Source: Candidatus Oxydemutatoraceae bacterium (GTDB lineage: Bacteria; Pseudomonadota; Gammaproteobacteria; Poriferisulfidales; Oxydemutatoraceae). From it: a stretch of 64,000 bases of DNA. Numbering within the stretch: position 1 is the stretch's first letter; each line of letters starts with the position of its first letter. The stretch covers positions 1,216,001 to 1,280,000 of the forward strand of contig CBDCOZ010000003.1 in assembly GCA_965220085.1 (NCBI GenBank), read 5' to 3'. The notes beneath the pieces are model-generated. The model had not been told where the DNA came from. It did not search any database and was given only the letters and a program-made list of their open reading frames with translations. Below are positions 22,852 to 62,031 of the stretch, one piece after another. The position numbers were made by a program, and so were the translations under genes.

Positions 22852-23589
22852 CTATCGCAACGGGCCTTCCAGAAAGATGCGCAAGCGCATCCGTAATCCC
22901 GTGAAAACGCATTGACCGCCGACGAGGGGGGAGAGTCCGCCGTGCGGGGCTGAGGAGCGAGTCGCGCCTTGTCGGATATGTGACGGTTTCGCGCATCTGC
23001 ATTCAATCGCGCCAATGGTGTTGATGGTTGCCGGAATCAAACCGCGCGTCCCGTCCGGGTCGCAGTTGTAAACGTATCGCGAATCGCTTCCGTCCTCCGG
23101 TCTTTGCGGAAACTCCAAGTTGGGGCCAAAAGCGTCGTAGCAATTGCCGCCGGAAGAGTATGTGCACTGACTGCCCGTGCTACCGCTGGCAAGGTCCCAA
23201 TGCCCCACCAGACACCGGCTGAGAGAGATAACGGATTGCCAACCTCTCTCCTCGCATTTTTCTTTCGGCATCACGCATCTGCGATCCAACGTCACTTTTC
23301 CCGTCGGACAAGTTTTCACGCATTCGTTTCCGTCACGGAATTCGTCCGTTGCGCAGGATTGTGCTTGGGCCTGAGCGGATACGATGAAAAAGGCGAGCAG
23401 AAAGAGCGACCGGAGGCCGCACCTGCTTAACTTAATGTGGAGGGGGGGGGGGGGGGGGCAAACGGATGCTAACGTGCTTGCACGGAATTGTGCGGCGTTA
23501 AAAAGCGCGGTGCGGGTTTTCAACCTTCCGCAGAAGATTTGAATCGTGCGTCCGCGAATGAAAGAGTTCGGAGTCATATTGCAAATCAT
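22852..23589 (-). CDS. Exported Cys-rich protein, LEGPLR family member 1 (poly-C17, in frame)
   Basis: Conserved leader, G17 at 23442-23458, signal peptide ending AQAQAQ, many Cys, ends LRMRLRIFLEGPLR*. Confidence 0.8.
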   Translation of the reverse strand: MICNMTPNSFIRGRTIQIFCGRLKTRTALFNAAQFRASTLASVCPPPPPLHIKLSRCGLRSLFLLAFFIVSAQAQAQSCATDEFRDGNECVKTCPTGKVTLDRRCVMPKEKCEERGWQSVISLSRCLVGHWDLASGSTGSQCTYSSGGNCYDAFGPNLEFPQRPEDGSDSRYVYNCDPDGTRGLIPATINTIGAIECRCAKPSHIRQGATRSSAPHGGLSPLVGGQCVFTGLRMRLRIFLEGPLR

Positions 23590-23612
23590 ATCACAAACCT
23601 CTATAAAAAATT

Positions 23613-23716
23613 CACAAACAACTGAGTGTTGTTTGTGCTCTTATTACCGTGCCTCATTAAATGCCGTTTGCGTACACAGAAGTCCACACTATATACGATT
23701 TGCACCCGCCTTGCAA
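23613..23716 (-). promoter_or_regulatory. Sigma70-like promoter TTGCAA-N17-TATAGT plus palindrome CACAAACAAC-TGAGT-GTTGTTTGTG
   Basis: -35 at 23711-23716, -10 at 23688-23693, palindrome at 23613-23637; conserved in paralogous leaders. Confidence 0.6.
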
Positions 23717-23779
23717 CTGGCGCATTTATCTTTGTAACGCCTACATTATATAGACTATTCCTAAGCCTTGTGCTTGCAC

Positions 23780-24152
23780 TGGTCACACGCTCCCCTCGCA
23801 GGAGAAGCGCAGAGTCCGCTATAACTCCGAGCTTTTTTGAAAGTTGCAGAATTCGATCCACAGGCGATGGATGATGCAGTGAAGAGAAAGCTTCGTACTT
23901 GCGCCGACCACACGCTCCCCTCGCAGGAGAAGCGCAGAGTCCGCTATAACTCCGAGTTTTTTTGACAGTCGCAGAATTCGAGCTACAGGTGGCGGACGAT
24001 GCAAAGAGTGTTACTTGCACCATGCAAGGGGTGAGTGTTACTCGCACTAGGCAACGGAGAGTGTCGCTTGCGCCAGGCAAGGGGAGCGTGTCACTCGCAC
24101 TCGGCAAGGGGTGAGTGTTGCTTGCGCTAAGCAAGGAGAAATGTCGCTTGCA
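23780..24152. repeat. Inter-cassette repeats: ~120-bp units plus a degenerate ~28-30-bp tandem array
   Basis: GAGTCCGCTATAACTCCGAG units, then GAGTGTTACTTGCAC-like units running up to the gene stop codon. Confidence 0.75.
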
Positions 24153-25712
24153 CTACCGCAACGGGCCTTCAAGAAAGAGACGCAGGCGCAAGCGTATATT
24201 GGCTCTGACCACCGGCGCAACGGAAGTCCAACAACGCATCTCGCTACCGCCGTCATCATCATCAAAGGCGGCGCAGACACGGAGGAGTTTGCCCGCCTGC
24301 CCCTGCATGGGAGCGAAGGTCGCAGAGGCAGCGCCGGGGATATTCGTGATATCGTCGGGCAACTGCGGTGCGCGGGCGAAAAGGCACTCAACAAACTGCC
24401 GATAAGTTGAGTCGGTGTTTCCGATGCACACCAAATTCTCGTCAATTTCATTAAACATGTGAGTGGCGAGAGACCGCGAAGGTCCGCTTGTTTGGAGACC
24501 GTCAAAAATTTGCTGAACGGCATCCAGCATGTCGCCATAGTTTTCGTCGCGGACGAGATAGGACACAAACGCGGTCAGCACGGCATCTCCGATGTCCATA
24601 AGGCCCTGATGCGTCTGTGCGTCCCTTGCGGCGACTATCCCGTCGTATATTTCCTTCGCCGTTCCCGTGAGGGTGGCGGTGGAGACGGTCGCAGTTTCAA
24701 CTTCCTGCCACTGCCAGACGGGGGCGAAGGCAGTGATGTCATTGGCATCGTCTATCGTGCCGATGGATGCGGTCAGTGTGCTGCCCACATTGGGCCCGTC
24801 CATGGTCAGGTCAGCGCCGTCCGCCGCCGTCACCGCCGGTTCGCCGCTGGCTACAGCGTTGACCTTCGCAACGGAAGTCCAGCAACGCGTCTCGCTGTTG
24901 CCGGCATCATCATCAAAGGCGACGCAGACACGAAGGAATTTGCCCGCCTGCGCCTGCATGGGAGCGAAGGCCTCAGCGGTAGCGCCAGGGATATTCGTGA
25001 CATCAGGCATCTGCGGAATTTGAGAGAACAAGCAATGCGTGTATGTCTTTCTGAAAATGTTGCCGCTGCCGACGCACGGCGAGCGGTTAACCCCGCTGGC
25101 CTGCTCCACCACTTCAAAAAGGGCTCCGCCGCTGGCGAAAACTTGTCCGGAAGCGTCATTGGCAAGCGCTCCAAGCGAATGGGTCTCGTAATAGTCGTCG
25201 TCGCGCAGAAGGTAAGACACAAACGCGTCTCGATACGCCATTGCCGCCGTCGCCAATATCGTGTTGGGCGAGGAAAACCACGCCGTGAACCCGTCATAAA
25301 CCTCCTTCGCCGTTCCCGTGGTCGCAACTTCAACCTCCTGCCACTGCCAGACGATGGCGCCATCGGCATCGGCTATCGTGCCCGTAGTTGCGGTCAGCAC
25401 ACTGTTCACATTGGGCCCGTTCGTGGTCAGGTCGGTGCCGTCCGCCGCCGTGACCGCCGGTTCGCCAGCAACGGCAGTGTTGGTCTGCGCCTGCGCTTGA
25501 CCGCAGACGATGATTAGGGCGAGCAGAAAGAGCGACCGGAGGCCGCACCTGCTTAACTTAATGTGGCAAAGGGGGGGGGGGGGGGGGGGGGGGTAAACGG
25601 ATGCTAACGTGCTTGCACGGAATTGTGCGGCGTTAAAAAGCGCGGTGCGGGTTTTCAACCTTCCGCAGAAGATTTGAATCGCGCGTCCGCGAACGAAAGA
25701 GTTCAGAGTCAT
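24153..25712 (-). CDS. Exported protein with two Ig-like repeats, LEGPLR family member 2 (poly-C23, in frame)
   Basis: G23 at 25571-25593; signal peptide; two GEPAVTAADG...WQWQ...RVC..F.DD repeats; ends IRLRLRLFLEGPLR*. Confidence 0.85.
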   Translation of the reverse strand: MTLNSFVRGRAIQIFCGRLKTRTALFNAAQFRASTLASVYPPPPPPPLCHIKLSRCGLRSLFLLALIIVCGQAQAQTNTAVAGEPAVTAADGTDLTTNGPNVNSVLTATTGTIADADGAIVWQWQEVEVATTGTAKEVYDGFTAWFSSPNTILATAAMAYRDAFVSYLLRDDDYYETHSLGALANDASGQVFASGGALFEVVEQASGVNRSPCVGSGNIFRKTYTHCLFSQIPQMPDVTNIPGATAEAFAPMQAQAGKFLRVCVAFDDDAGNSETRCWTSVAKVNAVASGEPAVTAADGADLTMDGPNVGSTLTASIGTIDDANDITAFAPVWQWQEVETATVSTATLTGTAKEIYDGIVAARDAQTHQGLMDIGDAVLTAFVSYLVRDENYGDMLDAVQQIFDGLQTSGPSRSLATHMFNEIDENLVCIGNTDSTYRQFVECLFARAPQLPDDITNIPGAASATFAPMQGQAGKLLRVCAAFDDDDGGSEMRCWTSVAPVVRANIRLRLRLFLEGPLR

Positions 25713-25735
25713 ATCACAAACCTCTATAAAAAATT

Positions 25736-25848
25736 CACAAATAACTAAGCGTTATTTGCGTACATATCTTCCTATATCCCGCGAGCAACTAAGTGTTGTT
25801 TGCGTGCACAGAAGCCCACACTATACACGATTTGCACCCGCCTTGCAA
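25736..25848 (-). promoter_or_regulatory. Promoter TTGCAA-N17-TATAGT and 25-bp palindrome
   Basis: -35 at 25843-25848, -10 at 25820-25825, palindrome at 25736-25760. Confidence 0.6.
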
Positions 25849-26879
25849 CTGGCTGTATGATGCCAGTACATATTGGAAACTTTGGGCAAATATTGTGTAA
25901 TTTGTGCCATAGGTGTTTGGAGCCTCAATCCATAATGTGGTCGTTGGGTATTAAACCATAGCAGGTAGTCTATCATACGCTCATTGAATTCCCGAATATC
26001 GGTCAGCAACAAGCCCTCTTCAAACTCCACAAACTCTTCCTGGAGCGTGCGGTTAAAGCGTTCATTGAATGCGTTCATCTTCGGACATTTGGGATACGTG
26101 TAGCAGTGCCGGATACCTTGCTCTTGCAGGCAGCGATCAAACGCGCCGCAGAACTCGGAGCCGTTGTCGGTGAGCACTTGCTCTATCTTGGCGGGGAACA
26201 CTTCCATCATCAGCTTCATAAAGAACTCGGCGGCGATGCTGTTGCCACGAGGGACGCCGATAGCAAAGCCAAACCGGCTATGCAAATCTACGGCCGTGAA
26301 CAGATAGCGACGCTGACCTTGAATAAACCGTTGCACGGTATCCATAGCGATGCAATGCCCGATACGCTTTGCATTGAAACCCTTTTCAAGACGCTCCTTG
26401 CGCTTGCTTTGCGGTGTGCGTTGCCGACGCGGTTTTGCGGGCACCCAGCGCATCTTATCGGCTTCGCCGGCAATCAGTCGCGCGATGGTGCGCGGCTTGG
26501 GACAACGCAAGCCGCGCTCGTCACACCACGGTTGAATCAGCAGGTATATCTTGGGTGCGCCGTAGGGATAGTTTTCGCGGTGTCGCCGAATCTCGGCGAT
26601 AATCTCCTCAGGCCAGTTGCGCCGGCGTGGCTGGCGCGGGCAAGTGCTCTGATTGATTAAGCCGTTAATGCCATAAAGCCGATATTGTCTCCGCCACTCA
26701 TAGAGTGATGATTTGCTGATGTGGTAAGCGTCCATGCTGGCTTTTATGTTGTGGTTCTCCCATAATATAAGGGCTTCAAGTTTCTGTTTTGCTTTATAGC
26801 TCATAGTTGCCTCGTCTATTGAAAAAGCAGCTATTTTATAGAAACCTTTGATGCCGTGGCCGATGTGTTGATATTGCAT
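25821..26879 (-). CDS. IS481-family DDE transposase
   Basis: N-terminal HTH, MDT, TDNGSEF, NERFNRTLQEEF and N.QRPH motifs; stop codon lies in flanking DNA. Confidence 0.88.
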   Translation of the reverse strand: MQYQHIGHGIKGFYKIAAFSIDEATMSYKAKQKLEALILWENHNIKASMDAYHISKSSLYEWRRQYRLYGINGLINQSTCPRQPRRRNWPEEIIAEIRRHRENYPYGAPKIYLLIQPWCDERGLRCPKPRTIARLIAGEADKMRWVPAKPRRQRTPQSKRKERLEKGFNAKRIGHCIAMDTVQRFIQGQRRYLFTAVDLHSRFGFAIGVPRGNSIAAEFFMKLMMEVFPAKIEQVLTDNGSEFCGAFDRCLQEQGIRHCYTYPKCPKMNAFNERFNRTLQEEFVEFEEGLLLTDIREFNERMIDYLLWFNTQRPHYGLRLQTPMAQITQYLPKVSNMYWHHTASCKAGANRV

Positions 26880-26934
26880 GTCGGCTACGTTTGTTGTTGA
26901 AGCCAAGAATCCAGAATGTTTCTGGCATTATGCA
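25854..26934 (-). mobile_element. IS481-family insertion sequence (~1.08 kb)
   Basis: Imperfect IRs TGTATGATGCCAG.. and ..CTGGCATTATGCA; interrupts a leader that is intact at ~29040-29060. Confidence 0.8.
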
Positions 26935-26989
26935 CCAGCGCATTTGCCTGTGGCAATGCCTGCATTATATAGACTATTCCTAAGCGTTG

Positions 26990-27533
26990 TACTTGCGCCG
27001 GTCACACGCTCCTCAGCGGGGGAGGCGCAGAGTCCGCTATGACTCCGAACTTTTTTGAAAGTTGCAGAGCCCGAGCCACAGGCGATAGACGATGCAGTGA
27101 AGAGAAAGCTTCGTGCTTGCGCCGGTCACACGCTCCTCAGCGGGGGAGGCGCAGAGTCCGCTATGACTCCGAACTTTTTTGAAAGTTGCAGAGCCCGAGC
27201 CACAGGCGATAGACGATGCAGTGAAGAGAAAGCTTCGTGCTTGCGCCGGCCACACTCTCCTCGAGAGAGAGTCGCAAAGTCCGAGCCACAGGCGATGGAC
27301 GATGCGGTGAAGAGAAAGCTTCGTGCTTGCGCCAACTACACTTCCTCTCTGGTGCGCTTGCGGAGATAGTGCGAGGAACGTACCGGAGTAACTACCGCCA
27401 GTCAGCCCCCAAGGAAGCATGTGTGCAAGTCCCGCGAAGGAATTGCTTCCCGCTACCGCAACGGAGAATGTTACTTGCACCATGCAAGGAGTGAGTGTTA
27501 CTCGCACTACCGCAAAGGAAGGTGTCACTTGCA
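26990..27533. repeat. Inter-cassette repeats: tandem ~121-bp units, a REP-like fragment and a ~30-bp array
   Basis: CCGGTCACACGCTCCTCAGCGGGGGAGGCGCAGAGTCCGC repeated at ~26998 and ~27122. Confidence 0.75.
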
Positions 27534-28908
27534 CTACCGCAACGGGCCTTCCAGGAAGATGCGCAACCGCAAGCGCAAACTGCCGGGCACAACACGGGCG
27601 GCGACGGAGCAGAGCGTCTCGCTGACCGGCATCGGATGGCTGTCCATGAAACTTGCGCAGACTCTTATGTATTGTCCCACCTGCTCCTGGCCTGGGGTGA
27701 ATATGGTGGTGGTGGCATCGGTGATGGCGGAGTAGTCGTTATCCGCCGGGGTGCCGGAGTCCGGGGCAACGGCCTGTTGCCATTGCCACATCAGGGTGCT
27801 GCCATCTATGCCGTTAGGTTCGGTTATGCCTCCTACGCCAGTAGACAGCCGGGTGCCCTCGGCGTAGGTCGGGTTCTCTGCAGTGGTGACCGGGATTATG
27901 CCAGGTCTGCCAGAGGCGGCGACCTGAGCCGCCACCACCAGACGAATGCTGGCTATGGCGTTGTTGGTGCTGGTTTTGTTGTCGGTGCCATCGCTGCCAT
28001 CGTCCACCACATTGAAGTTGAAAGAGGTGTAAGCGTCGCCAAGGTCGTCGGGGTCGTTGGGCTCCTGGCCTGATTCCGGGTAATAGGTCAGTTCCCTGGC
28101 GGTCAGTTGGGCCACAGTTATTTCCATTGTGGGAACATCGGCGTTGGTCAGGACTGTGCCATCCAGAGCCATAGTGCCGCGGAATGGCAATGTTTGTACG
28201 ATGACGGCAGCCAGCATATCGTCATCGGCATCGGTGAGCGGGAAGTCGGTTGCCTTGAATATGTATGGGTTGGCGGCATTGGCGTTGACATTTACCGTGA
28301 GCGCTCTTGTGGTGAATAAATTGCTTGCCGTCGGCTTGTCATTGATGTTGGCCACGGCGGTGGCTATCTGCAGGCATCGCATCTCCGAGTTGGGGGTGGT
28401 GGCCATATCCATGAACGATGCGCAGACCTGCAGAAACTTGCCCACCTCATCATCGCCCGGAATGAAAGCGGCATTGGTCGCGCCGGCTATGGCGGTGTAG
28501 GTGCCGCCGTTGGCGGTGGCCGCGCTCCATTGCCAACTGAATGTGCCCAAGCCATCGGTGTCGGCTATGGCGGTGGAACCGTTGCCGCCGTTGGCAGTGA
28601 TGGCGGAGTCCTCAGTGGGGGTGTTGCCGCTGGCGTAGGTGACGGCGGGTGTGCCGGTGGCCGGGCTGTTGCTCTGCGCTTGCGCCTGAGCGGATAAAAT
28701 GAAAAATGTGAGCAGAAAAAGTGACCGGAAGCCGCACCCGCTTAACTTAATGCGGAGGGGGGGGGGGGGGGGGGGGGTAAACGGATGCTAACGTGCTTGC
28801 ACGGAATTGTGCGACGTTAAAAAGCGCGGTGCGGGTTTTTAACCTCCCGCAGAAAATTTGAATCGCGCGTCCGCGAATGAAAGAGTTCGGAGCCATATCA
28901 CAAATCAT
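27534..28908 (-). pseudogene. LEGPLR family member 3, Ig/cadherin-like repeats; frameshifted at poly-C21 (phase-OFF or homopolymer error)
   Basis: Leader MICDMAPNSFIRGR from 28908 hits TAA after G21 (28757-28777); the other frame gives the signal peptide and runs open to LRLRLRIFLEGPLR* at 27534. Confidence 0.8.
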
Positions 28909-28931
28909 ATCACAAACCTCTATAAAAAATT

Positions 28932-29044
28932 CACAAATAACTAAGCGTTATTTGCGTACATATCTTCCTATATCCCGCGAGCAACTAAGTGTTGTTTGCG
29001 TACACAGAAGCCCACACTATACACGATTTGCACCCGCCTTGCAA
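28932..29044 (-). promoter_or_regulatory. Promoter TTGCAA-N17-TATAGT and 25-bp palindrome
   Basis: -35 at 29039-29044, -10 at 29016-29021, palindrome at 28932-28956. Confidence 0.6.
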
Positions 29045-29099
29045 CCAGCGCATTTGCCTGTGGCAATGCCTGCATTATATAGACTATTCCTAAGCGTTG

Positions 29100-29321
29100 T
29101 ACTTGCGCCGGTCACACGCTCCTCAGCGGGGGAGGCGCAGAGCCCGCTATGACTCCGAACTTTTTTGAGAGTCCGAGCCACAGGCGGTGGACGATGCAAA
29201 GAATGTTACTTGCACTAAGCAACGGAGAATGTTGCTTGCGCTCAGCAAGGGGTGAGTGTTGCTTGCACTACCGCAAGGGGCGAGTGTTACTTGCACCAGA
29301 CAAGGGTGAGTGTTACTTGCG
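29100..29321. repeat. Inter-cassette repeats (partial 120-bp unit plus ~30-bp array)
   Basis: Same units as 23780-24152. Confidence 0.7.
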
Positions 29322-29407
29322 CTACCGCAACGCCCCTTCAAGAAAGATGCGCAACCGCAACAGCAAGCGCAAGGGGCGCACACGAGCGGCGACAGAGCAG
29401 AGCGGGG
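29322..29407 (-). pseudogene. 3' remnant of a LEGPLR family gene
   Basis: Hand translation gives PLCSVAARVRPLRLLLRLRIFLEGALR*; no leader or signal peptide upstream. Confidence 0.75.
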
Positions 29408-29539
29408 TCGCGCGCGCCCGGCGCATCTGATTGGTCGCGCCGTTTTGATTTGCCCGCCGGAGACATCCGAACCGCTTATCGGGCGCGCCGGTCACGCCGC
29501 TCGTGTCAGTGCGCTGATATTTTTAAGTATGCAAGCCCC

Positions 29540-35582: not shown

Positions 35583-36538
35583 GTGACATTTATCCGTGGC
35601 AGCGGCGACAGTGGGAGACCTGGATTAATCTGGCGCACAGCGACCGCTTGCCTCATGCGTTGTTGCTGTATGGCAACTCCGGAATCGGGATTCGGGACTT
35701 TGTGATACACGCTGCGCACAGCATATTATGCGAGCACGCCGAGGCCGCGCAGAAACCGTGCGGCCGATGTCGCGCTTGTCGTCTTCTCGCAGCCGGAACA
35801 CACCCCGACTATTGCCCGGCAGAAGCGCAGAAGAAAGAAATACAGATTGACCAAGTGTTGCGGTTGATAGCGTTTCTTCAGTTGGAGCGGCAGTACCGAC
35901 AATACCGCCTTGTCGTCATTCCGGAGATCGACAAATTGAACTACTCGGCGGCTAACGCGTTATTGAAAATCCTTGAAGAGCCGCCGCCGTGGGCGTTGAT
36001 TCTGGCCGGCACCGAGAACCTGTCGCGCCTGCCGGCGACGATACGCAGCCGTTTCCAAAAGATGCGCTTTCCGCTGCCCGGCGAGGAAGCCGAAGGGTGG
36101 CTCGCGGAGAAACTGGGGTGTGACCGGCAACAGGCGCGGCAGAAACTGCGGCGATATAACATGCAGGCGCTGGTCGCATTGGCGGAAAGCGCGAGCGGCA
36201 AAGAGGAAAAAGACAGTTATGAATCCTTTCACGCCGATTTTGTAGCCTACATCCAGGGCCGGGTTTCGCTGACCCGTATGGCCGAAGAATGGCAGGGTGT
36301 CGCTCCCGAGCGGATACAGAACTGGCTGCTGAGAGAGTTGCACAGCGCATTGAAACTGCAATTTCTGCCGGATGCCGACTCGGAGATACCCTTTGCGCAC
36401 ATCAAAGGCAAGCCTCTGGAGAATCTGTATCTGTTGCAGGTCGGGCGCTGTCATATGGCCCATGCAAACTTGAATTCTCGTTTGCTGTTGGAAAGCAGTT
36501 TGCTGGAGTGGGGCAGGGCGTTGGCGCGACCGAACTAG
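35579..36538 (+). CDS. holB: DNA polymerase III delta' subunit
   Basis: YPWQ, CGRCRAC, HPDY, AANALLKILEEP and LPATIRSR motifs. Confidence 0.93.
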   Translation: MSDIYPWQRRQWETWINLAHSDRLPHALLLYGNSGIGIRDFVIHAAHSILCEHAEAAQKPCGRCRACRLLAAGTHPDYCPAEAQKKEIQIDQVLRLIAFLQLERQYRQYRLVVIPEIDKLNYSAANALLKILEEPPPWALILAGTENLSRLPATIRSRFQKMRFPLPGEEAEGWLAEKLGCDRQQARQKLRRYNMQALVALAESASGKEEKDSYESFHADFVAYIQGRVSLTRMAEEWQGVAPERIQNWLLRELHSALKLQFLPDADSEIPFAHIKGKPLENLYLLQVGRCHMAHANLNSRLLLESSLLEWGRALARPN

Positions 36539-37231
36539 AATGCTTGCAAACATTCCAGCGCCTTGTCCGGATACGCATTCGGAGAATCTGTATCTGTTGC
36601 AGGTCGGGCGCTGTCATATGGCCCATGCAAATTTGAATTCCCGTTTGCTGTTGGAAAGCAGTTTGCCGGAGCGGGGAGGGCGTTGGCGCGACCGAACTAG
36701 AATGCTTGCAAGCGCTCCAGCGCCTTGTCCGGATACGCACTCGGAGAATCTGTATCTGTTGCAGGTCGGGCGCTGTCATATGGCCCATGCAAACTTGAAT
36801 TCCCGGTTGCTGTTGGAAAGCAGTTTGCCGGAGCGGGGCAGGGCGTTGGCGCGACTGAACTAGAATGCTTGCAAGCATTCCAGCGCCTTGTCCGGATACG
36901 CATTCGGAGAATCTGTATCTGTTGCAGGTCGGGCGCTGTCATATGGCCCATGCAAATTTGAATTCCCGGTTGCTGTTGGAAAGCAGTTTGCCGGAGCGGG
37001 GCAGGGCGTTGGCGCGACCGAACTAGAATGCTTGCAAGCATTCCAGCGCCTTGTCCGGATACGCGCTCGGAGAATCTGTATCTGTTGCAGGTCGGGCGCT
37101 GTCATATGGCCCATGCAAATTTGAATTCCCGGTTGCTGTTGGAAAGCAGTTTGCCGGAGCGGGGCAGGGCGTTGGCGCGACCGAACTAGAATGCTTGCAA
37201 GCATTCCAGCGCCTTGTCCAGATACGCATTC
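36418..37231. repeat. Five tandem copies of a 162-163-bp unit covering the overlapping 3' ends of holB and the convergent aminotransferase
   Basis: Units start at 36418, 36581, 36743, 36906 and 37069 (GGAGAATCTGTATCTG...). Confidence 0.95.
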
Positions 37232-38352
37232 GGAGTATAGAAGTGGGGGGAGAATCTGACACCGCCGCCGCGATGGGCACAGAGAATGTCTTGCTCCAGC
37301 AACTGCCGGAATAATTCCTTTGCTTCTTTGGCGCGCGGTTTTACCGTCAGGATTCCGGCTCTTTGTGTCGCATCCAAAGGCGTCAGAATCTGATATTTTT
37401 CCCGGTCGATGCGCTCCGACAGATAAGCGATTCGGGCCGAGATGCGCTCGCTGATAGCGGCAATTCCGACATCAAGCAATAGTTCAATACTCGTATGCAA
37501 ACCGCTGATTCCTAAGCTATTCGGGCTGCCGCATTCAAAGCGTCGGGCGCTAGGACTCAGTTGCCAGTCGCAGAGCTTGGCGGAATGGAACAAGGTGTCG
37601 TAATCGTTGCGGTTGGCGACCGATGCCCAGCCGAGTTGGCGCGGTATCAATTGTTCAATCTGTTCTTTGCGACAATAAAAAACGCCGATGCCTTCCGGAG
37701 CCAGCAACCATTTGTGACCGTCAGCGGCGGCAAAATCTATTTGGCACGCTTGCACATCAAACGGCAACGCGCCGAGGCTCTGGATCGCATCCACACAAAA
37801 CAGGGTGTTATTCTGCCGACAAGCGGCGCCGAGTTTTTCCAATGCGATTCTATGACCGTAGGCATATTGAACCGAGCTGACCGCCAGCAGGCGGGTGCCG
37901 GAATCCATCTGTTCCAACAACGCTTCTTCGGGCGCGCTTTTTCCGTAAAGGTCTGCGCAACGCGGCTCTACGCCGAACTGTCGGGCGGTCGCCTCCCAGA
38001 CGATGCGGTTGGATGGGAATTCCTGTTGCCCGAACACGATATTGTCTCCGGGCTTCCAGTCTATGCCGTGGGCGACAAAGGATAATCCTTCGGAGGTGTT
38101 TTTTATCAATGCGATCTCATCGGCCGATTGCGCATGGAACAATTTTTGCGCCATCGCCCGCAACTCGTCGCAACGATGTTCCCATTCGCCAAAGTCTATT
38201 CTGTTGTCGGCGCTGTTCTGTTCGGCGAAGCGGCGGATGGCCGCTTGGGTCCGGCGCGGCCACGGCGCAAGACCCGCATGGTTTAAGTGGGTAATCCGAT
38301 CGCTTGCAAAAGGGCCGAATTCATCTTTAACTAGGGTTATAATGTCGTCCAT
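37186..38352 (-). CDS. Class V PLP aminotransferase / cysteine desulfurase-like protein
   Basis: HLNHAG, NTSEG, VDAIQSLG, DGHKWLLAPEG and RFSPHFY motifs. Confidence 0.9.
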   Translation of the reverse strand: MDDIITLVKDEFGPFASDRITHLNHAGLAPWPRRTQAAIRRFAEQNSADNRIDFGEWEHRCDELRAMAQKLFHAQSADEIALIKNTSEGLSFVAHGIDWKPGDNIVFGQQEFPSNRIVWEATARQFGVEPRCADLYGKSAPEEALLEQMDSGTRLLAVSSVQYAYGHRIALEKLGAACRQNNTLFCVDAIQSLGALPFDVQACQIDFAAADGHKWLLAPEGIGVFYCRKEQIEQLIPRQLGWASVANRNDYDTLFHSAKLCDWQLSPSARRFECGSPNSLGISGLHTSIELLLDVGIAAISERISARIAYLSERIDREKYQILTPLDATQRAGILTVKPRAKEAKELFRQLLEQDILCAHRGGGVRFSPHFYTPNAYLDKALECLQAF

Positions 38353-39928: not shown

Positions 39929-40031
39929 AGCGGGACGGCCTCAACGTGCGCACTCAGCGGCGATCGTCGGGAGAGGATGTTGCGTTTCGCTATTCAGCGG
40001 GACGGCCTCAACGTGCGCGCTCAGCGGCGAT
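39929..40031. repeat. 36-bp direct repeat (39929-39964 and 39996-40031) including the FAH gene stop codon
   Basis: AGCGGGACGGCCTCAACGTGCGC(A/G)CTCAGCGGCGAT. Confidence 0.8.
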
Positions 40032-41827: not shown

Positions 41828-41906
41828 TGGGATATTTTATCATGCAGAAAGCCGCTATAATAGAGCACATTTGTCAGACCGACCTGCCACGGTCGCACCC
41901 GTTGAT

Positions 41907-44430: not shown

Positions 44431-44437
44431 AAGGCGC

Positions 44438-44796: not shown

Positions 44797-44925
44797 AGAA
44801 ATAGGGGAATTATGTATTTAACTTGACAGAGGCGGATTATGTCAGGCAGGAAACTTGACAAAGATACCAGTACGCTATATACCTATATCTTAATTCGTTG
44901 TTAAACCACTTTGGGGATTAGGACT

Positions 44926-45846: not shown

Positions 45847-45998
45847 AAACCACCCACAGCATAACTACAGTTTCGGTGAAGGTAGATAATTCAAAAAGGG
45901 TTCCTTTGATAATAGATTTATCGGTGGTGCTATCCTTCCTTTGAGTATGAAATAGACAATGTAGAGCATGACACATCTAATCAGTCAGATATGCAAAT

Positions 45999-46157
45999 AT
46001 GAAACAGAAAGACTTAGACAGAGCGGCTACGGCACTACTTAAAGCAGGGAAACCGCCGAAGGATAAAGATTGCCCGATACCGACAAAAGCAGACTTAAAC
46101 CGTAAGTTTGTCATGCGGGTAGACCGTCAAGGCAAACCCACAATTATTGAGAAATAA
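45999..46157 (+). CDS. 52-aa passenger ORF inside the IS1595 element
   Basis: MKQKDLDRAATALLKAGKPP...IIEK*, ending just before the right IR. Confidence 0.5.
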   Translation: MKQKDLDRAATALLKAGKPPKDKDCPIPTKADLNRKFVMRVDRQGKPTIIEK

Positions 46158-46197: not shown

Positions 46198-47817
46198 ATG
46201 AAAAAAGAAATTTATAATACTACCCCCCCCCATGTAAATAGAAATAGGGGGATTGCGGGTACTTGGCTCTATGGCCTCGTCGCCCTCTTCCTGCCGCCAT
46301 CCCATATAGACTCGCCATACACCGCACAGTTGCGCTACCCGATTTCGCCCGGGCTTTCGCTGTGGTTGCGGCTTGTGGCGCTGTTCGCACCCGCACGGGC
46401 GGCGGTGCATGGCATCGGCTGGGCCGCCATGCATTGTCTGCTGACCCTGTGCCTGGCATTGGGCGCGAACTGGGCGAATGCCCAAGCTCAGGACAGCAGA
46501 ATTGATGTCCCTGTTGGCAACGATATGCATATATTCGATGCAACAGACTTCGGAGCCAGACTCGGTAACAGTGTAACCTTCATCTCCCGCCCCACTTATG
46601 GCAGACTGATTGATCTCTCTGACAATAACATGGTGGAAATCAGAGGAGATGTGCTTGCTGGCGAGCCTGGAGATGTTTTCTTCGCCCACGAACTCAACGG
46701 CGAGAATGATGGCAGCGGCGCCGCATACACACTCCCGGCCGATGCCATCTCTGTCGCCAACGGTTATGACAGTTTTGCTTTCTCGATAGAGGCCGGGGGT
46801 GTCAGTACCGAGGCCATCATGACTATCAATCTGGTGGGAGCGTCCACGCAGATGGCCGCCAGCGGTGCGCCCACTGTTGCGGCCGCCATGGGCCACACCG
46901 CCTATAACGTCGGTGTGCCGCTGACTGCTTCCATCACAGGTGTGACTGAGCTCAACGGCATCAATGTGGAAACTCTGGCATGGAAGTGGCAACAGGCCGA
47001 TGCCCCCGCCAGTGGTGCTCCCATGGCCAGTGCCTACAGCGATATAGCGGGAGCCACTGCCACGGGCGCAGCTTCCTCAGACTTCACACCGCTTGTCGCC
47101 CATGCTGGAAAGTACATACGGGTCTGTGCCGCATTCATGGATCAGTTTTCCACTCCGGCGGCCTCAGGAGATCTGTGCAGCACCGGCAGCCAGGTGACCA
47201 ATGCGCCATTCTTTGGCGATGCATCGGTGGATGATCAAGTCTGGGTGACCGGCACCGCCATAGCCGCCCTGGTTCTGCCTGAGGCCATGTTTGGCAATGG
47301 CACATTGACTTACAGCCTGATCCCCACAAGCCTGCCCACCGGCCTCTCCTTTGATGCAGTCACCCGCACTATCAGCGGCACCCCGACGGCGACAACTTCA
47401 CAGCCGTCCTCATATGTTTGGTCTGTTGCCGATGACGACGGCGATACAACCACGCTGCTCTTCGATATAGAAATCAGTGCCGATGCAAAACCGGCCTTTG
47501 CCACCGAGGCGGCCATCGCCGACCAGACCTGGATTACCGGCACCGCCATAACCGACCTGGTGTTGCCTGCGGCCACCGGCGGCAATGGTGCGCTGACCTA
47601 TACCCTGACCCCGGCACTGCCCGCGGGCCTGAGCCTTGATGTCGCCACCCGCACCATCAGCGGCACACCCACGGCGGCGGCGCAGAGCAACTATACATGG
47701 ACAGCGGCGGATGCCGACAACAACACTGCAAGCAGCGATACGACCAGCCTGACTTTCAGCGTCATCTCAAATATACGCTTGCGCCTGCGCCTCTTTCTTG
47801 AGGGGCCGCTACGATAG
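46198..47817 (+). CDS. Exported Ig-like (He_PIG-type) repeat protein, LEGPLR family member (poly-C9)
   Basis: C9 at 46223-46231; ANAQAQ cleavage site; two LP.GLS.D..TRTISGTPT repeats; ends IRLRLRLFLEGPLR*. Confidence 0.85.
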   Translation: MKKEIYNTTPPHVNRNRGIAGTWLYGLVALFLPPSHIDSPYTAQLRYPISPGLSLWLRLVALFAPARAAVHGIGWAAMHCLLTLCLALGANWANAQAQDSRIDVPVGNDMHIFDATDFGARLGNSVTFISRPTYGRLIDLSDNNMVEIRGDVLAGEPGDVFFAHELNGENDGSGAAYTLPADAISVANGYDSFAFSIEAGGVSTEAIMTINLVGASTQMAASGAPTVAAAMGHTAYNVGVPLTASITGVTELNGINVETLAWKWQQADAPASGAPMASAYSDIAGATATGAASSDFTPLVAHAGKYIRVCAAFMDQFSTPAASGDLCSTGSQVTNAPFFGDASVDDQVWVTGTAIAALVLPEAMFGNGTLTYSLIPTSLPTGLSFDAVTRTISGTPTATTSQPSSYVWSVADDDGDTTTLLFDIEISADAKPAFATEAAIADQTWITGTAITDLVLPAATGGNGALTYTLTPALPAGLSLDVATRTISGTPTAAAQSNYTWTAADADNNTASSDTTSLTFSVISNIRLRLRLFLEGPLR

Positions 47818-51109: not shown

Positions 51110-53407
51110 TTAAAAGCTCCCGCCAAAATCAAGTTGAAACCTTTCGGTCTCATCGTCCGATTCATTATTATAATGGGTTGCAAAATTTAAGTTAATTATT
51201 CCCAGCGGGGTCAGCCATTGAAGCTCCGTCCCCAATGAGCCCCGCAAATCCGCAAAGGAAAAGTCATCAACATCGTCAAACACATTGCCCAAATCGCTGA
51301 ATAAGCCGACCCGCAATCGGTTCGGGTCATACAGCCCCCCCGTCGGCAAAAACAGATTCACACTGCCGATGGTCCTGAAATCCCCCCCCAAGGGGTCGTC
51401 GTTTTCCACATCTCGCGCCCCCAGAGAATTACTCCTGTAACCGCGGACTGTCTTCGTTCCTCCCGCATAGAACTTGTCATAAAAGGGCACCTCTTCGGTA
51501 CTCCCGAAGGCCCTGGCATACGATATGATACCACTAGGCGCCAAAACCCACTCATTATCTTGGTCAAGCGGCAGATACGTTCTGTGCGTGTAATTCAACT
51601 TTGAATAGACCAAATCGCTGCCCGGGACAAAGGCTTCCACGCTGCCGCGCAATCGCATGCCGGTGGTCGGGAACAATGAGCGGTCGCGGGTATCGTAGAC
51701 CAAACTGGCGCTGAGTATAAAGTTGGTGAAGGATTTTCCCTCGCGCTCGGTAAACGCATGCGCTCTGGTGCCCGAAGTCGGTTCGCCCAGCGTAATCTTC
51801 TGCAGCCGCGCGCCCAACCCCAGCGTATCGTCTTCCGATACCGGAATGCCGAAGGTGAGCCCCAGACTGAGCTCTTTGCTGTCGGTGCCCGACGTGCGGC
51901 TTTCTTCAAAGTCGGTCGATGAGTAGTTGATGCGCCAGGAACGGCTGATACCGTCCACGGTATAGTGCGGGTCGTATACGCTTATGCCATAGCGCGAGTT
52001 GGTCTCGCTGTTGTTAAAAGAAAACTGGACGCGGTCGCCCTCGCCCATAAAATTATCCTGCGTCACACTGATTGAAAACACAGCCCCGTCGCTGTCGGAG
52101 AGACCCGCGCCGATGTTAAAGCTGCCGGACAGGCGCTCCTCTACCGCGAAATCCAAATCGATCTGATTGTCCTCCCCCGCAACCGGGTTTTCGCGCACAT
52201 CGACAGCGGTGATATACGGCAGGCGCTGTAACCTGCGGCGCGAGCGGTCTATGTTCTTGCTTGAATATGCCGCCGATTCCACCTGCCTCAACTCGTGCCG
52301 AAAGACCGAGTCGTTCGTCGTGTCGGTGCCGGAAAAAGTGATTCTGCGCACATAGGCGCGCTCGCCCGGGTCGGCGACAAAAAGCAGATTGACCTTCGCT
52401 TCGTCTCGGTGTTTGTCGGGCACCGTATTTACTTTGGCGAACGCATACCCCTGTTCTTTGAGGCGGTCGATGATGATATTGTCCGAATCTATCGCATTGC
52501 TGCGCGAAAACCGCTCGCCCTCTTTTGCCTTGAGTTGTTGTTTGAGCGCGGCGACATCGTCAATGCCGGAACCGGTGATGTCAATCTCGCCGATTTGATA
52601 AGGCGATTGTTCCGAGACTTTGATGACGATATCTATAAAGCGCTTATCGGGTGTCAATGTGACGCGCACATCGGTGATGGCAAAATCCAAATAGCCGCGA
52701 TCCAGATAGATATTTTTCATCAACTCCAGGTCGGACTCCAAACGAATCTTTGAGTAATGGTCTTTGTTGCTGAAAAATTCGTACCACGCCGGCTTGCCGG
52801 ATTGAAAATCCGCGGTCAGGGTATCGTAGTCAATGCGCCGATTGCCGATGATGCGTATCTCTCGTATCCGTGTCGTCTCCCCCTCATTGACCTCAATGGA
52901 GATATTGACCTGATTGTCCGGCAACTCAACGGTCTCCAGCGATAAGGTCACGGCATATTTGCCCAGTGCGTAATACTGCTGCTTGAGTTCTTTGCGCAGC
53001 CGTTCAAAGACCGTGCGGTCATAGATCTGACCGGCCGCAATGTTGATGGACTTCAAGCCGTCTAACATGGATTCGGTCGTAATCTCATCGTTGCCGGCGA
53101 TGATTATCTCGGCCACCCCCGGTCGCTCGTCGACCGAAATAATCAGCGTGTCATCCGCGTGTTTCAGCGTTACATCGTCAAACAGTTTCGTGCCGTAGAC
53201 AGCATGGATTATTTCCGCGCTGCGGGATACGTCAAAAAAGTCTCCGACCTGCGCCGGCAAGGCGACAAATACGGTACCGGGGTTTACCCGCTCAAGCCCT
53301 TCTATCTCTATGTCTTCAATGACAAAACCGGCGGCCATCAGCCGCCCGCCGCCGCAGAGGATTGCCGCTAATACAAGAACCCTTGGCAGTAATGCGATGC
53401 GAGCCAT
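51110..53407 (-). CDS. bamA: Outer membrane protein assembly factor BamA
   Basis: POTRA repeats, FYAGG..TVRGY and terminal Phe. Confidence 0.96.
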   Translation of the reverse strand: MARIALLPRVLVLAAILCGGGRLMAAGFVIEDIEIEGLERVNPGTVFVALPAQVGDFFDVSRSAEIIHAVYGTKLFDDVTLKHADDTLIISVDERPGVAEIIIAGNDEITTESMLDGLKSINIAAGQIYDRTVFERLRKELKQQYYALGKYAVTLSLETVELPDNQVNISIEVNEGETTRIREIRIIGNRRIDYDTLTADFQSGKPAWYEFFSNKDHYSKIRLESDLELMKNIYLDRGYLDFAITDVRVTLTPDKRFIDIVIKVSEQSPYQIGEIDITGSGIDDVAALKQQLKAKEGERFSRSNAIDSDNIIIDRLKEQGYAFAKVNTVPDKHRDEAKVNLLFVADPGERAYVRRITFSGTDTTNDSVFRHELRQVESAAYSSKNIDRSRRRLQRLPYITAVDVRENPVAGEDNQIDLDFAVEERLSGSFNIGAGLSDSDGAVFSISVTQDNFMGEGDRVQFSFNNSETNSRYGISVYDPHYTVDGISRSWRINYSSTDFEESRTSGTDSKELSLGLTFGIPVSEDDTLGLGARLQKITLGEPTSGTRAHAFTEREGKSFTNFILSASLVYDTRDRSLFPTTGMRLRGSVEAFVPGSDLVYSKLNYTHRTYLPLDQDNEWVLAPSGIISYARAFGSTEEVPFYDKFYAGGTKTVRGYRSNSLGARDVENDDPLGGDFRTIGSVNLFLPTGGLYDPNRLRVGLFSDLGNVFDDVDDFSFADLRGSLGTELQWLTPLGIINLNFATHYNNESDDETERFQLDFGGSF

Positions 53408-58883: not shown

Positions 58884-59752
58884 TGAATCTGAGCCATGAC
58901 TTCTTCGACAAAGTTCTCTTTTTTCTTCTCTATCCCTTCGCCGATTTCATAGCGGTGAAAGCTGTTCATGGTCGCCGATGCTTTCTGCAACAATTGGCCG
59001 ATGGTCACATCGGGGTCTTTGACAAACGGCTGACCGACCAGCGTAATCTCCTTGAGAAATTTCTTCATCCGCCCGCGCACCATCTTGTCGACGATATCGG
59101 CGGGCTTGCCTTCGGCGGCGGCCTGCTCGGTTAAAAACGCTCTCTCTTTATCCGCCATCTCGGCGGGCACGTCGTCTTCGCTGATAAATTGCGGACGGCT
59201 GGCCGCAATATGCAATGCGATATCTTTCGCCAGCGTTGCGTCGCCGCCTTGCATATCCGCAACCACACCGATGCGGGTGTTATGCATATAGACCGCGTGC
59301 GCATCGCCATCCAGCGGGATGCGAACAAAACGCCGTACTTGGATATTTTCTCCGGTCTTAATCACCAGAGTCTTGCGGGTGTCTTCAACGGAGTCCGCGC
59401 CGATTGCAAGCTTGGCGAGCGCCTCGCCGTCGGCCGGGTTTGCCTCCAGCGCCGCTTGTGCGACACGATGACAGAATGATTGAAAGCTCTTTTCTTTGGC
59501 GACAAAATCGGTTTCGCAATTCACTTCCAGCAACAGAGCCGCCGATTTGTCGTCGGCAACCGCCACGCTGATCAGACCTTCCGCGGCAATCCGCGCGGCT
59601 TTGTTATCGGCCTTGGCCTGCCCCGCTTTGCGCAACAACTCAACCGCCCTCTCCATATCCCCGTCGGCTTCGGTCAGAGACTTCTTGCACTCCATCATTC
59701 CGGCGCCGGTTCGCTGCCGCAATTCTTTGACCATTAAAGGAGTGATTTGCAT
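58880..59752 (-). CDS. tsf: Elongation factor Ts
   Basis: [10 protein letters not shown] and [10 protein letters not shown] motifs. Confidence 0.97.
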
Positions 59753-59764
59753 CGCCTGAGAATG

Positions 59765-60565
59765 CTACTCGCGCGCGTCCGCCGCATCGTCGTCGTCATC
59801 GGCGATGAGCGGCGCCGTCGGCGCAACCGTTTCTTTTGCCTTGTCGCTTTCGGCAACGACATCAAGCCCCTGCCTCTGACGTTCGTCGCGCCCTTCGATG
59901 ACCGCATCCGCAAACGCCGAGGCGTATAGCTTGATAGAACTGATGCTGTCGTCGTTGGCCGGAATCACATAATCTATGCCGTCGAGCGAGTTATTGGTAT
60001 CAACCACCGCCACCAGCGGGATGCCAAGCCGCACCGCCTCTTGTATCGCGATGCTCTCGTAGCCCACATCGATTACAAACAAGGCATCGGGCAGGTGGCC
60101 CATCTCTTTTATGCCTTCAAAGTTCCGCCGCAGTTTGAGGTATCTGCGGCGCATCTTCTGCGCGTCCTTTTTGCTCATGCCGCCCAACACGCCCTTGTTC
60201 TCGACCACATCCTGAAGCTCTTTGTATTTGTTGATTGACACGCGCAAGGTTCTGTAATTCGTCAACGTGCCGCCGAGCCAATGATGATTCACATACGGCA
60301 TTTCGCAACGTCTTGCCTGATCCCGAATCGCAAGCGAAGCGGCTCTCTTGGTGCCGACAAAAAGCACAGTCTTGCCATCGAACGCCAAGTCCCGAACGAA
60401 CGCCAACGCATCTTTTAGCATCGGCAACGTCTTATCCAAGTTTATGATGTGAATGCCATTGTGTTTGCCGTAGATGTACGGAGCGATTTGCGGATTCCAA
60501 TAACGAGGGCGGTGGCCCAAGTGCGCTCCGGCGGCAAACAAATTTTGTATAGTTGTTTCAGTCAT
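59765..60565 (-). CDS. rpsB: 30S ribosomal protein S2
   Basis: AGAHLGH...WNP, WLGGTLTN and PANDD motifs. Confidence 0.97.
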   Translation of the reverse strand: MTETTIQNLFAAGAHLGHRPRYWNPQIAPYIYGKHNGIHIINLDKTLPMLKDALAFVRDLAFDGKTVLFVGTKRAASLAIRDQARRCEMPYVNHHWLGGTLTNYRTLRVSINKYKELQDVVENKGVLGGMSKKDAQKMRRRYLKLRRNFEGIKEMGHLPDALFVIDVGYESIAIQEAVRLGIPLVAVVDTNNSLDGIDYVIPANDDSISSIKLYASAFADAVIEGRDERQRQGLDVVAESDKAKETVAPTAPLIADDDDDAADARE

Positions 60566-60696
60566 TCAAATCTGGCGTATCAAACGGGAGTCGCCCCCCA
60601 AGATAATTTAGCCGACCATTATAACCATCTCTGCCGTTTGAAGCAATAACAAATTGTATGTTGCCAAGACCTATCGGACACCCGGGGCAACTCGCG

Positions 60697-62031
60697 CTAC
60701 CGCAACGGGCCTTCCAGGAAGAGCCGCAACCGCAAGCTCAGGCCCATCAGGTTTATCGTCAGGGTGGCATCCTCTCTGGCCTGATTGGTGCTGACATTGA
60801 TGGTCTCGCAAAGGAACCCGCCGGCATCGAGTCTGCATAGTCTTGTTGAGGCGCTGCTGGCGCCGGTGTCCAGCACTCTATATGCGAGGGTTGCGTAACC
60901 CGCTGTGCCGGCGGCGGCATCGGCTTCCGGATAGTATGCCAGAGCATCCAGCTGGGCCAGTGTCAACTCGGTGTCGGCGGCTATGGTGACACTGGCATCG
61001 CCCACTACCAGCAGGGTGCCCCGTTCGGGCGGGGTGATTATGCGGATGCCATTGATGGTGTCGCCGTCCTCATCCTCAAAGGGGAAGTTGCCCCGCACAA
61101 AGCGGTGCGGATTGGCGGAGCTGGCAGTGCTCGCTACCCAGACGGCGCTGTCGCCGCCCACGGGCCAGTCGCTCACGGCTGTTATTCGGCTGCTTGCGGA
61201 GCACAACGGCCCCTCGCTACCGGAGGGAGAATGCAAGTCCATGAAACTGACACAGACGCGAATGTACTGGCCCACCTGCTCCTGCATGGGCTGGTAGAAC
61301 TGGGTGGTCTCACCGCTGATGGCGGCGTAGGCGCCGGTCTCGGTGGCGGACTGTTCCCATTGCCATTTCAGGGTCTCGCTGTCTATGCCGTTGAGGTCAC
61401 TAACATTGCCAAGTGCGGTCTGGAGCGGCGTATCCTCGCTGTATGTGGTACCGCTGGCACCGGTGTCCAGGGTGCCCACTCTGGGCGCGCCAGTTGCGGA
61501 AACCTGCGCGGATGCGCGCAGGCTGATGGTGATGGTGCCGTTGTTGGCCGAGGATTCGCCGGCGGTCGTGACGCTGAATGTGAAGGAGGTGTATCCGGCC
61601 TGCGCACTCTGCCCCGCTTCCGGATAATAAGTGATGGTGCCGATGCTGGCGGTTGCCACAGTCTCATTCACAGTGGCGGCGGAGCTGCCCACCCTCAGTG
61701 TGCCGAGGGATGGCAGGCTCTTTATCGTGATGCTGTCCAGGTCATCATCATCGTCCACTTCCGTAAAAGGGAAGTCGTCCTCCTCAAAGGTGTACGGGCT
61801 GTTGGCGGTGGCATTGTGCAATACCCAGATGGTTTTGTGGTTGGCAGATGGCTTGGCTTGAGCGGCCGAGACAGCCGGGTCCGCATCGTTGTGCGGTTGC
61901 GCCTGCGCCTGTGCGCAGATAACAAACAGGGCTGGCAGAACCAGCGACCAGAGGCTAAACCGAGTTAGTCTTGCCCGCTGATGCGGGGGGGGGGGGGGGG
62001 GGGGGGTAGTATTATAAGTTTTTTGCTTCAT
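60697..62031 (-). CDS. Exported Ig/cadherin-like repeat protein, LEGPLR family member (poly-C22, in frame)
   Basis: G22 at 61985-62006; signal peptide ending AQAQAQ; ends LRLRLFLEGPLR*. Confidence 0.85.
   Translation of the reverse strand: MKQKTYNTTPPPPPPPHQRARLTRFSLWSLVLPALFVICAQAQAQPHNDADPAVSAAQAKPSANHKTIWVLHNATANSPYTFEEDDFPFTEVDDDDDLDSITIKSLPSLGTLRVGSSAATVNETVATASIGTITYYPEAGQSAQAGYTSFTFSVTTAGESSANNGTITISLRASAQVSATGAPRVGTLDTGASGTTYSEDTPLQTALGNVSDLNGIDSETLKWQWEQSATETGAYAAISGETTQFYQPMQEQVGQYIRVCVSFMDLHSPSGSEGPLCSASSRITAVSDWPVGGDSAVWVASTASSANPHRFVRGNFPFEDEDGDTINGIRIITPPERGTLLVVGDASVTIAADTELTLAQLDALAYYPEADAAAGTAGYATLAYRVLDTGASSASTRLCRLDAGGFLCETINVSTNQAREDATLTINLMGLSLRLRLFLEGPLR

Follow-up and report, generated by a model that had tools for sequence, protein, structure and literature searches.

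Poly-C tracts between start codon and signal peptide as putative phase-variation switches in a tail-sharing family of predicted secreted proteins

We examined a 64-kilobase (kb) stretch of contig CBDCOZ010000003.1 from a Candidatus Oxydemutatoraceae bacterium, hereafter the window, in whose positions all coordinates are given, for the long cytosine homopolymers (poly-C tracts) that it carries in the leaders of genes encoding a family of predicted secreted proteins. A homopolymer scan of the + strand returned G17, G23, G21 and G22 runs, each of which is a poly-C run in the coding strand of a gene read in the opposite direction, and one C9 run in a gene on the + strand (Table 1). All five tracts have an ATG on their 5′ side and, on their 3′ side, a signal-peptide-like stretch ending AQAQAQ, and every full-length gene of the window that ends in ...LEGPLR and a stop codon possesses one (5/5). 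The five genes, numbered 1 to 5, carry the tract at the same position in two different types of leader: genes 1 to 3 share a long leader of about 45 residues, M(ICNM)TPNSFIRGR...ASV, and genes 4 and 5 have the short leader MK(K/Q)(E/K)(I/T)YNTT, which in gene 5 is encoded 3′ of an AAGGAG sequence lying 5′ of the ATG. The body of gene 1 gives a weak Furin-like Pfam match that falls under the cut-off of that model, and gene 4, which has an in-frame ATG at 46429 directly 5′ of its hydrophobic core, matches He_PIG with an E value of 1.9e-20. The sole further C or G run of at least 8 in the window is a C8 at 51382-51389, within an Omp85/BamA-like gene, and the scan found no A or T run of at least 8 in the 64 kb. 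The first-pass annotation of this DNA had reported the five tracts with these positions and lengths, their equivalent placement in two leader types (M..NSF.RGR.. and MK...YNTTPP) and the lack of comparable runs in ordinary genes, and on all three counts the scan agrees with it, the C8 run being the only other one of at least 8.

When run length was varied in silico, each of the five window genes opened only at every third length. As assembled, genes 1, 2, 4 and 5 are in frame (ON) and gene 3 alone is out of frame (OFF): at C21 its start codon leads into a TAA at 28749-28747, two codons past the tract, and at C17, C20, C23 or C26 it opens a frame of 452-455 residues, as the annotation had predicted for C20 and C23 when it pointed to the early TAA. 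None of the five genes has an in-frame ATG, GTG or TTG within 75 nucleotides (nt) behind its tract, and the long leader is open in all eight of its copies, so that the case which the annotation had named as its own refutation, a translation start 3′ of the tract, does not apply to these genes.

Table 1. Tracts, family genes and accompanying features of the window; ON and OFF refer to the reading frame as assembled (aa, amino acids).
Feature	Position	Strand	Remarks
Poly-C17 tract, leader of family gene 1	23442-23458	-	G17 on + strand
Family gene 1, 245 aa, in frame (ON)	22852-23589	-	Long leader, Pro run, signal peptide ...SAQAQAQ, Cys-rich body, tail RMRLRIFLEGPLR then stop
Poly-C23 tract, leader of family gene 2	25571-25593	-	
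Family gene 2, 519 aa, in frame (ON)	24153-25712	-	Long leader, signal peptide, two internal repeats, tail RLRLRLFLEGPLR then stop
Poly-C21 tract, leader of family gene 3	28757-28777	-	
Gene 3 leader frame, OFF as assembled	28747-28908	-	ATG 28908 (or 28896), tract, TAA
Gene 3 body frame, 417 codons stop to stop	27534-28787	-	Open to tail; different frame from start codon
Poly-C9 tract, leader of family gene 4	46223-46231	+	
Family gene 4, 539 aa, in frame (ON)	46198-47817	+	MKKEIYNTT leader, pre-sequence of about 90 residues, He_PIG immunoglobulin (Ig) domains, tail RLRLRLFLEGPLR then stop
Poly-C22 tract, leader of family gene 5	61985-62006	-	
Family gene 5, 444 aa, in frame (ON)	60697-62031	-	MKQKTYNTT-P7-signal peptide, Big_9/cadherin-like body, tail SLRLRLFLEGPLR then stop
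Remnant frame, 35 residues, family tail at end	62425-62532	-	Without tract, without start
Promoter-like site TTGCAA-17-TATAGT, gene 1	23688-23716	-	About 100 nt 5′ of gene 1 start
Identical promoter-like site, gene 2	25820-25848		
Identical promoter-like site, gene 3	29016-29044		
10-bp hairpin then T run, gene 1	23613-23637	-	Between promoter-like site and ribosome-binding site
Hairpin counterpart, gene 2	25736-25760	-	
Hairpin counterpart, gene 3	28932-28956	-	
rve-type integrase (insertion sequence, IS)	25821-26906	-	Beside family genes
IS1595-family transposase	44911-45846	+	Low-GC (43%) stretch, beside family genes
TdeIII-type restriction endonuclease	62968-63807	-	Beside family genes

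The genome as a whole comprises 2,492,841 bases in three contigs, named C1, C2 and C3 here, with 55.7% guanine plus cytosine (GC), and it holds 90 C/G runs of at least 9 bases, 81 of which measure 13-28. Base composition would lead one to expect 0.22 runs of at least 13, against the 81 observed, an excess far beyond chance; the longest A run and the longest T run of the genome are of 9 bases, one each. With the exception of two runs unrelated to the family (G10 and G9), all of the 90 lie between a start codon and a signal-peptide-like stretch, with C always on the coding strand (88/90). In the typical context, with the runs oriented as poly-C, a ribosome-binding-like motif is followed by an ATG, about 7 codons (M-K/N-x-Q-x-F-N-T), the run and the signal peptide, and the tract lies 3-131 nt 3′ of the start codon. 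From 83 of the 88 placed tracts a frame runs open through to a ...RLRLRLFLEGPLR tail and its stop codon, four further tract genes carry the tail in another frame, that is, with a frameshifted body, and one tract directly adjoins the ATG of a giant frame, over 3,000 codons long, the end of which lies outside the stretch read. The runs in the 83 genes are of 9-28 bases (median 19); 77 of these runs reach at least 13 and 70 at least 15 bases. Family frames of at least 1,000 residues number 15 among tract-less members and none among the 83. The statement of the first-pass annotation that every full-length family member has a tract consequently stands for the window and falls for the genome, where a pure C run of at least 9 marks the 5′ end in 83 of 189 tail-bearing frames of at least 100 residues.

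Whether the tract is itself translated can be judged from relatives that lack it. In tract-less paralogues the same leader is fused straight onto the same signal peptide, as in MNRQIFNTAPDWRATLARRSLRSLILPALFVICAQAQAQ compared with MKQKTYNTT-P7-HQRARLTRFSLWSLVLPALFVICAQAQAQ, and 35 of the 106 tract-less members have the canonical leader motif (M..Q.F[ND]T), which all but one of them read in the frame of the body (34/35). Five more relatives of the long leader of genes 1 to 3 exist elsewhere in the genome, and across the resulting eight diverged copies, one of which contains an in-frame 21-nt duplication, a single frame is open in 8/8 and the other two are full of stops. Because the leader is in frame in the tract-less paralogues and the long leader is open in every copy, we take the tract to be coding; a repeat of the hypermutable type is accordingly placed inside a coding region near its 5′ end, as in translational phase variation.

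In many further paralogues the C run that accompanies this leader is short or interrupted (for example ...FDTRPRS... and ...FNTAPHW..., found for instance at C1:122-132 kb), C runs of 6-8 occur in 27 family members, and T-interrupted C runs directly follow several of the long tracts. The paralogues with short or interrupted runs may be precursors of tracts or derivatives locked ON.

Of the 83 tract genes, 27 have an upstream ATG that shares the frame of the body, a proportion indistinguishable from one third, compared with 34 of the 35 tract-less paralogues (Fisher p about 8e-12), and the tract lengths modulo 3 fall into classes of 27, 25 and 31. The remaining 56 genes are out of frame, and the downstream frame is intact in all 83. 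Since every body is open from tract to tail, the disruption of frame is concentrated at the tract and the OFF genes are not decaying. Repeat number alone sets ON or OFF with the rest of the gene intact, both in silico in the five window genes and across the 83 intact frames. Six recent paralogue pairs are alike on both flanks of the tract, and in three of them tract length differs (13 vs 19, 22 vs 20 and 18 vs 15), an indirect sign that lengths may drift.

These counts bear on a reading in which the tracts are real, with lengths that are fixed and in frame in the cell, and every OFF call, including the C21 of gene 3, is an error of the assembly consensus. Long homopolymers are error-prone on all sequencing platforms, and contigs from public sequencing runs do break at the tracts. 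However, in-frame lengths are not enriched, either overall (27/83) or among the genes with a canonical ATG 20-31 nt 5′ of the tract (12/57), so that errors would have to randomise nearly every locus; moreover, faithful replication of runs this long is not expected, and the stops that crowd behind the tract in the wrong frames, described next, would be purposeless. We therefore regard consensus error as an extremely unlikely explanation of the OFF state as a whole.

In the two wrong frames the first stop lies a median of 6 codons past the tract, and 138 of 166 such stops fall within 10 codons, compared with a median of 21 codons and 33% within 10 at control positions 150-450 nt deeper in the same genes (Mann-Whitney p about 8e-22). 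At the equivalent site in tract-less paralogues 35 of 68 wrong-frame stops fall within 10 codons (p 1.4e-6 vs tract genes); the early stops are partly a matter of leader-region composition, but the tract-bearing genes exceed what that accounts for. The same stops speak to a second alternative, according to which RNA polymerase or the ribosome slips on the 13-28 C residues, for example by re-pairing of prolyl-tRNA on CCC in whichever frame during slow Pro-Pro bond formation, so that some product would arise from every gene whatever its DNA length; the role of the tract would then be to damp expression or add noise to it, with a possible link to elongation factor P (EF-P), and not to switch genes heritably. 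The tract reads proline in all three frames, EF-P is present in the genome, EF-P and tRNA-Pro influence frame keeping at CCC runs, and constant low-level expression would also explain 83 intact frames of which two thirds are out of frame. Against this, the crowding of wrong-frame stops behind the tract points to out-of-frame reading as a genuine state that ends in termination, and transcriptional slippage in bacteria is best documented on A/T runs. Slippage at the level of RNA or ribosome is, in our judgement, very unlikely to be what the tracts are for.

We consider it likely, from the arrangement of the genes and their frames, that the tracts mediate slipped-strand translational phase variation of Ig/cadherin-like secreted proteins. 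The tracts would be hypermutable homopolymers within the coding region, behind the start codon and ahead of the signal peptide, in genes for proteins that are secreted or at the surface, and replication slippage would add or remove C residues. One length in three would link the start codon to the signal peptide and body, giving the ON state with 3-9 prolines added in the leader, and the remaining two lengths would run into stop codons a few codons past the tract, giving the OFF state; about 88 independent switches of this kind would produce random combinations of the repertoire across a population. Runs of 13-28 slip at high rates, and a high rate of length change in cells would be expected from the known behaviour of homopolymers this long. 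As EF-P is encoded, the proline runs of ON alleles should be translatable with its help. Export and surface location of the family proteins are predicted, and the variation would presumably matter in a host. Slipped-strand ON/OFF switching of a surface repertoire, which the first-pass annotation had put forward from the window, is thus our best reading as well, strengthened by the genome-wide position of the tracts, the share of genes in frame, the intact downstream frames and the early stops. The proposal is supported in part: assembly error may occur at long homopolymers, a tract in every full-length member is true of the window alone, and some tract genes elsewhere in the genome could be leaky.

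Several observations weigh against phase variation. Assembled lengths at homopolymers of 17-28 nt may be wrong, and an in-frame share of one third is also what errors of assembly length would produce. Among the 57 genes with a canonical ATG the in-frame share is slightly under one third (p 0.05), and in 21 of the 83 tract genes an in-frame ATG follows no more than 75 nt behind the tract, from which expression could be leaky or independent of the tract. MutS and MutL are both present and intact, so there is no defect of mismatch repair that would raise slippage. Read-level heterogeneity of length was not obtained, as the public runs consist of contigs fragmented at the tracts, and a search of public runs found no RNA or protein data for this genome.

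The public data consist of contigs from three runs of one study, which we compared over 22500-29500; these contigs are short, are broken at or near the tracts, cross-map between paralogues, and in no case span the whole of that stretch. Contigs anchored at the same two places differ by 1-4 extra G, with three forms in X2 (depth 23-32) and two in X3 (depth 32-34), in matches made at 90% likeness among the near-identical paralogous leaders of a metagenome. Such differences in the number of G residues may come from paralogues, from other strains or from sequencing slippage. Among 41 related genomes, genome contigs and metagenome contigs, the searches brought up neither a second strain nor a close relative that has tracts: a pattern of leader plus C12 occurred in 1/41 related genomes, namely that of the window itself, and its nine matches in metagenome contigs were all unrelated (GC 30-48%, without tail and without start-codon context). 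Contigs C1 and C2 do not duplicate C3 as alternative haplotypes.

The flanks of the tracts are mosaic. Of 26 pairs near-identical over the 100 nt 5′ of the tract, 15 are unrelated over the 100 nt 3′ of it, and conversely 19 of 27 pairs near-identical 3′ of the tract are unrelated 5′; identity between mosaic pairs stops exactly at the tract, as between 23442-23458 and 25571-25593. This mosaicism implies that promoter-leader and signal-peptide-body modules were exchanged at the tract, and it raises the alternative that the tracts are primarily recombination junctions, acting through a quadruplex or microhomology to swap modules, with variation of frame as a side effect, a role that is compatible with phase variation. 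Besides the exact boundary, 35 short tail remnants scattered over the genome are in keeping with such a role, and 70 of the 83 tracts, with at least 15 bases, are long enough for an intramolecular G-quadruplex. Mosaicism, however, records past exchange and says nothing of its mechanism, and recombination alone leaves the early stops and the one-third share in frame unexplained, for which reasons we think it very improbable that this is the primary function. Microhomology or a G-quadruplex on the template strand are candidates for a means by which the run itself might promote module exchange. A broader proposal would make the tract at once a heritable frame switch, an EF-P-dependent translational gate for about 88 genes and a quadruplex-capable recombination junction, yielding combined phase and mosaic (antigenic) variation of the 189-member family; we consider it unlikely in this full form, while favouring phase variation itself.

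The three long-leader genes are also alike in front of their start codons, where the identical TTGCAA-17-TATAGT site recurs. The region contains 4 promoter-like sites vs 3.5 in shuffles, hence no excess, and only the recurrence is worthy of note. The hairpin that follows differs between copies by a two-sided (compensatory) change in its stem; its role, together with the T run, may be that of an attenuator or of a terminator for the preceding gene.

Four other readings of the tracts were considered and rejected. A switch in a promoter spacer is ruled out by the position of the tract 3′ of the ATG in every leader type examined, the promoter-like sites of the three long-leader genes lying about 100 nt 5′ of the ATG. 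A regulatory RNA leader is ruled out likewise, as the frame of the long leader stays open and Rfam matches in the window were limited to 2 tRNAs; a Tat signal is excluded because the twin arginine is not conserved among leaders; and a bias of replication strand is excluded by the tract genes of contig C3, 40 of which are co-oriented with replication and 31 not.

The family to which these genes belong is recognised by its C-terminal tail. A six-frame search of the genome found 224 tails of the form ...RLRLRLFLEGPLR followed by a stop codon, encoded by 213 different 63-nt strings, from which it follows that the constraint acts on protein and not on DNA; in the window they end at 22852, 24153, 27534, 47817, 60697 and 62425. 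The 189 tails that close frames of at least 100 residues belong to frames of up to 15,193 aa, and these frames sum, stop to stop, to 163,249 residues, or about 19.6% of the genome. Family bodies match Big_9, cadherin-like and He_PIG domains, and the combination of signal-peptide-like leaders ending AQAQA with Ig/cadherin-like domains points to products that are predicted to be on the surface or to act on a host. The tail itself consists of 13 charged or amphipathic residues at the very end of the protein, x-R-L-R-L-F-L-E-G-P-L-R, and no Pfam or NCBIfam model matched so as to cover it. As a short invariant C-terminal signature on many diverse secreted proteins of one genome it resembles PEP-CTERM, GlyGly-CTERM, LPXTG and the C-terminal domain (CTD) of the type IX secretion system (T9SS), but unlike these it has no hydrophobic helix, and it does not show the motif, transmembrane helix and basic tail of known C-terminal sorting signals. 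It is therefore not of the exosortase, rhombosortase or sortase type, and it may be a sorting or anchoring signal of a kind not yet described.

Beyond this genome the bodies of the family are widespread and the tail is rare. A profile search of a library of 1.84 billion proteins found 19,315 proteins that share the body domains, mostly giant repeat proteins, and among the best 150 of these matches none of the 136 proteins from other sources has the tail. A word-indexed protein search drew 37 of its 39 matches from this genome, and the family profile had 0 matches among PDB sequences. In 53 genomes of the same order the tail pattern was confined to this genome (214 sites) and to four of the five genomes of one Ca. 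Porisulfidus-like sister genus (15, 2, 2 and 1 sites), with 0 sites for a reversed control pattern in the same genomes. In the sister genus the tail reads ...(I/L)RV(R/K)(V/L)FLEGP(L/F)R and closes large signal-peptide proteins, and no C/G run of at least 8 was found at the 12 tail loci that were fetched. The presence of the tail in a tract-free sister genus indicates that the tail came before the tracts; innovations of the lineage of the window are the tracts themselves and the growth of the family by roughly 190-fold.

A degenerate 36-nt tail pattern had 0 matches in the genome-contig collection, and the pattern K-x-F-L-E-G-P-L/F-R-stop matched five stretches, three of them in two records of Ca. 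Porisulfidus metagenome-assembled genomes, one in Kiloniella and one in Thermoanaerobaculia. The single Kiloniella and Thermoanaerobaculia matches are likely due to chance, by which we estimate that about two would be expected. Porisulfidus is, in the portions of two papers available to us, a genus of sponge symbionts that serves as an outgroup to SUP05 (PMC12988363, PMC9123188). One protein of other source, P0071 (2,015 aa), has a similar leader (…CAPPPPIRN…MTRRALWPLALLALFAI…) and ends ...DYRLRARLRW; this end may be a truncated tail, and P0071 could mark a second lineage with the system.

The ordinary genes of the window that are without long runs include those for a ClpA-like protein, an M50 RseP-like protease, Dxr, a ketoacyl synthase and a class-V aminotransferase. 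Directly 3′ of family genes, at 22799-22854, 24005-24155 and 29200-29332, there are tandem repeats of 26-27 nt that are AGAGTGTTACTTGCACTAGGCAAGGGG-like and contain a small inverted repeat each. Tandem repeats of 124 nt (2.4 copies, 95%) and of 86 nt are found at 26992-27347, in the stretch that separates the IS integrase gene from the 3′ end of gene 3, and at 36418-37235 a 163-nt unit is repeated 5.0 times with 96% identity in a place that has only short overlapping frames. GC skew flips sign at about 40000-46000, and on contig C3 cumulative skew reaches its maximum at about 1,250,000; a replication terminus or origin probably lies within the window.

The arrangement shares features with several established systems, the closest of which is the poly-G/C phasome of Campylobacter. 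In excerpts of a survey of 77 Campylobacter genomes, strains have 5-81 putative phase-variable genes, and C. jejuni 18-39, at a cut-off of at least 7 bases, with tract lengths that peak at 9-10, with 13-15 rare, and with C on the coding strand in only 5% (PMC6321876). The likeness lies in the many intragenic G/C homopolymers of a small genome that put surface-related genes in or out of frame. The tracts described here are about twice as long, with their median of 19 and 77/83 of at least 13, and have C on the coding strand in 83/83; compared with the range given in those excerpts, their number of loci is at the top under a far stricter criterion of length; and they occupy one position in one protein family, in a lineage related to sponge symbionts and not in a vertebrate pathogen.

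In Neisseria, pilC (poly-G) and opa (CTCTT) have their repeat within the signal-peptide coding region, so that the mature protein is unchanged when ON and paralogues switch independently; the loci there number from a few to about a dozen, and their repeats are either tracts of about 10-14 or pentamers. The tracts of this genome are similar in lying inside the leader coding region, and differ in their 83-88 loci, their lengths of C13-28 and the 3-9 prolines that an ON allele would encode. Homopolymers in promoter spacers, such as the poly-C of Bordetella fim, lie between promoter elements and tune transcription; a long poly-C run controlling expression of a surface protein is what is proposed here too, but with the tract 3-131 nt 3′ of the start codon and an effect on reading frame. 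Searches of the literature on Porisulfidus, on homopolymeric phase variation in sponge symbionts, on contingency loci of Thioglobaceae and on poly-C signal-peptide switches found no report of this system. The proposed mechanism is of a known kind; the scale, the tract length, the coding of proline, the mosaic junction, the new tail and the lineage set this case apart.

To our knowledge, nearly all that is known of phase variation by simple repeats comes from vertebrate pathogens and commensals. A 2025 review, in the part of its text available to us, attributes "ten or more" phase-variable genes to host-restricted species and does not use the word symbiont (PMC11868660). The present case is a 2.5-Mb gammaproteobacterium, of the same family as a sponge-symbiont genus, with about 88 putative switches in a protein family that fills about 20% of the genome. 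The conserved tail of that family points to what may be a novel route of sorting or anchoring. If the switching is real, it would imply strong and fluctuating selection on surface display in an invertebrate-associated bacterium, whether from host recognition, phagocytosis, phage or neighbours, and the genome would let combinatorial display, polyproline translation and the shuffling of leaders or cassettes be studied side by side in a natural setting.

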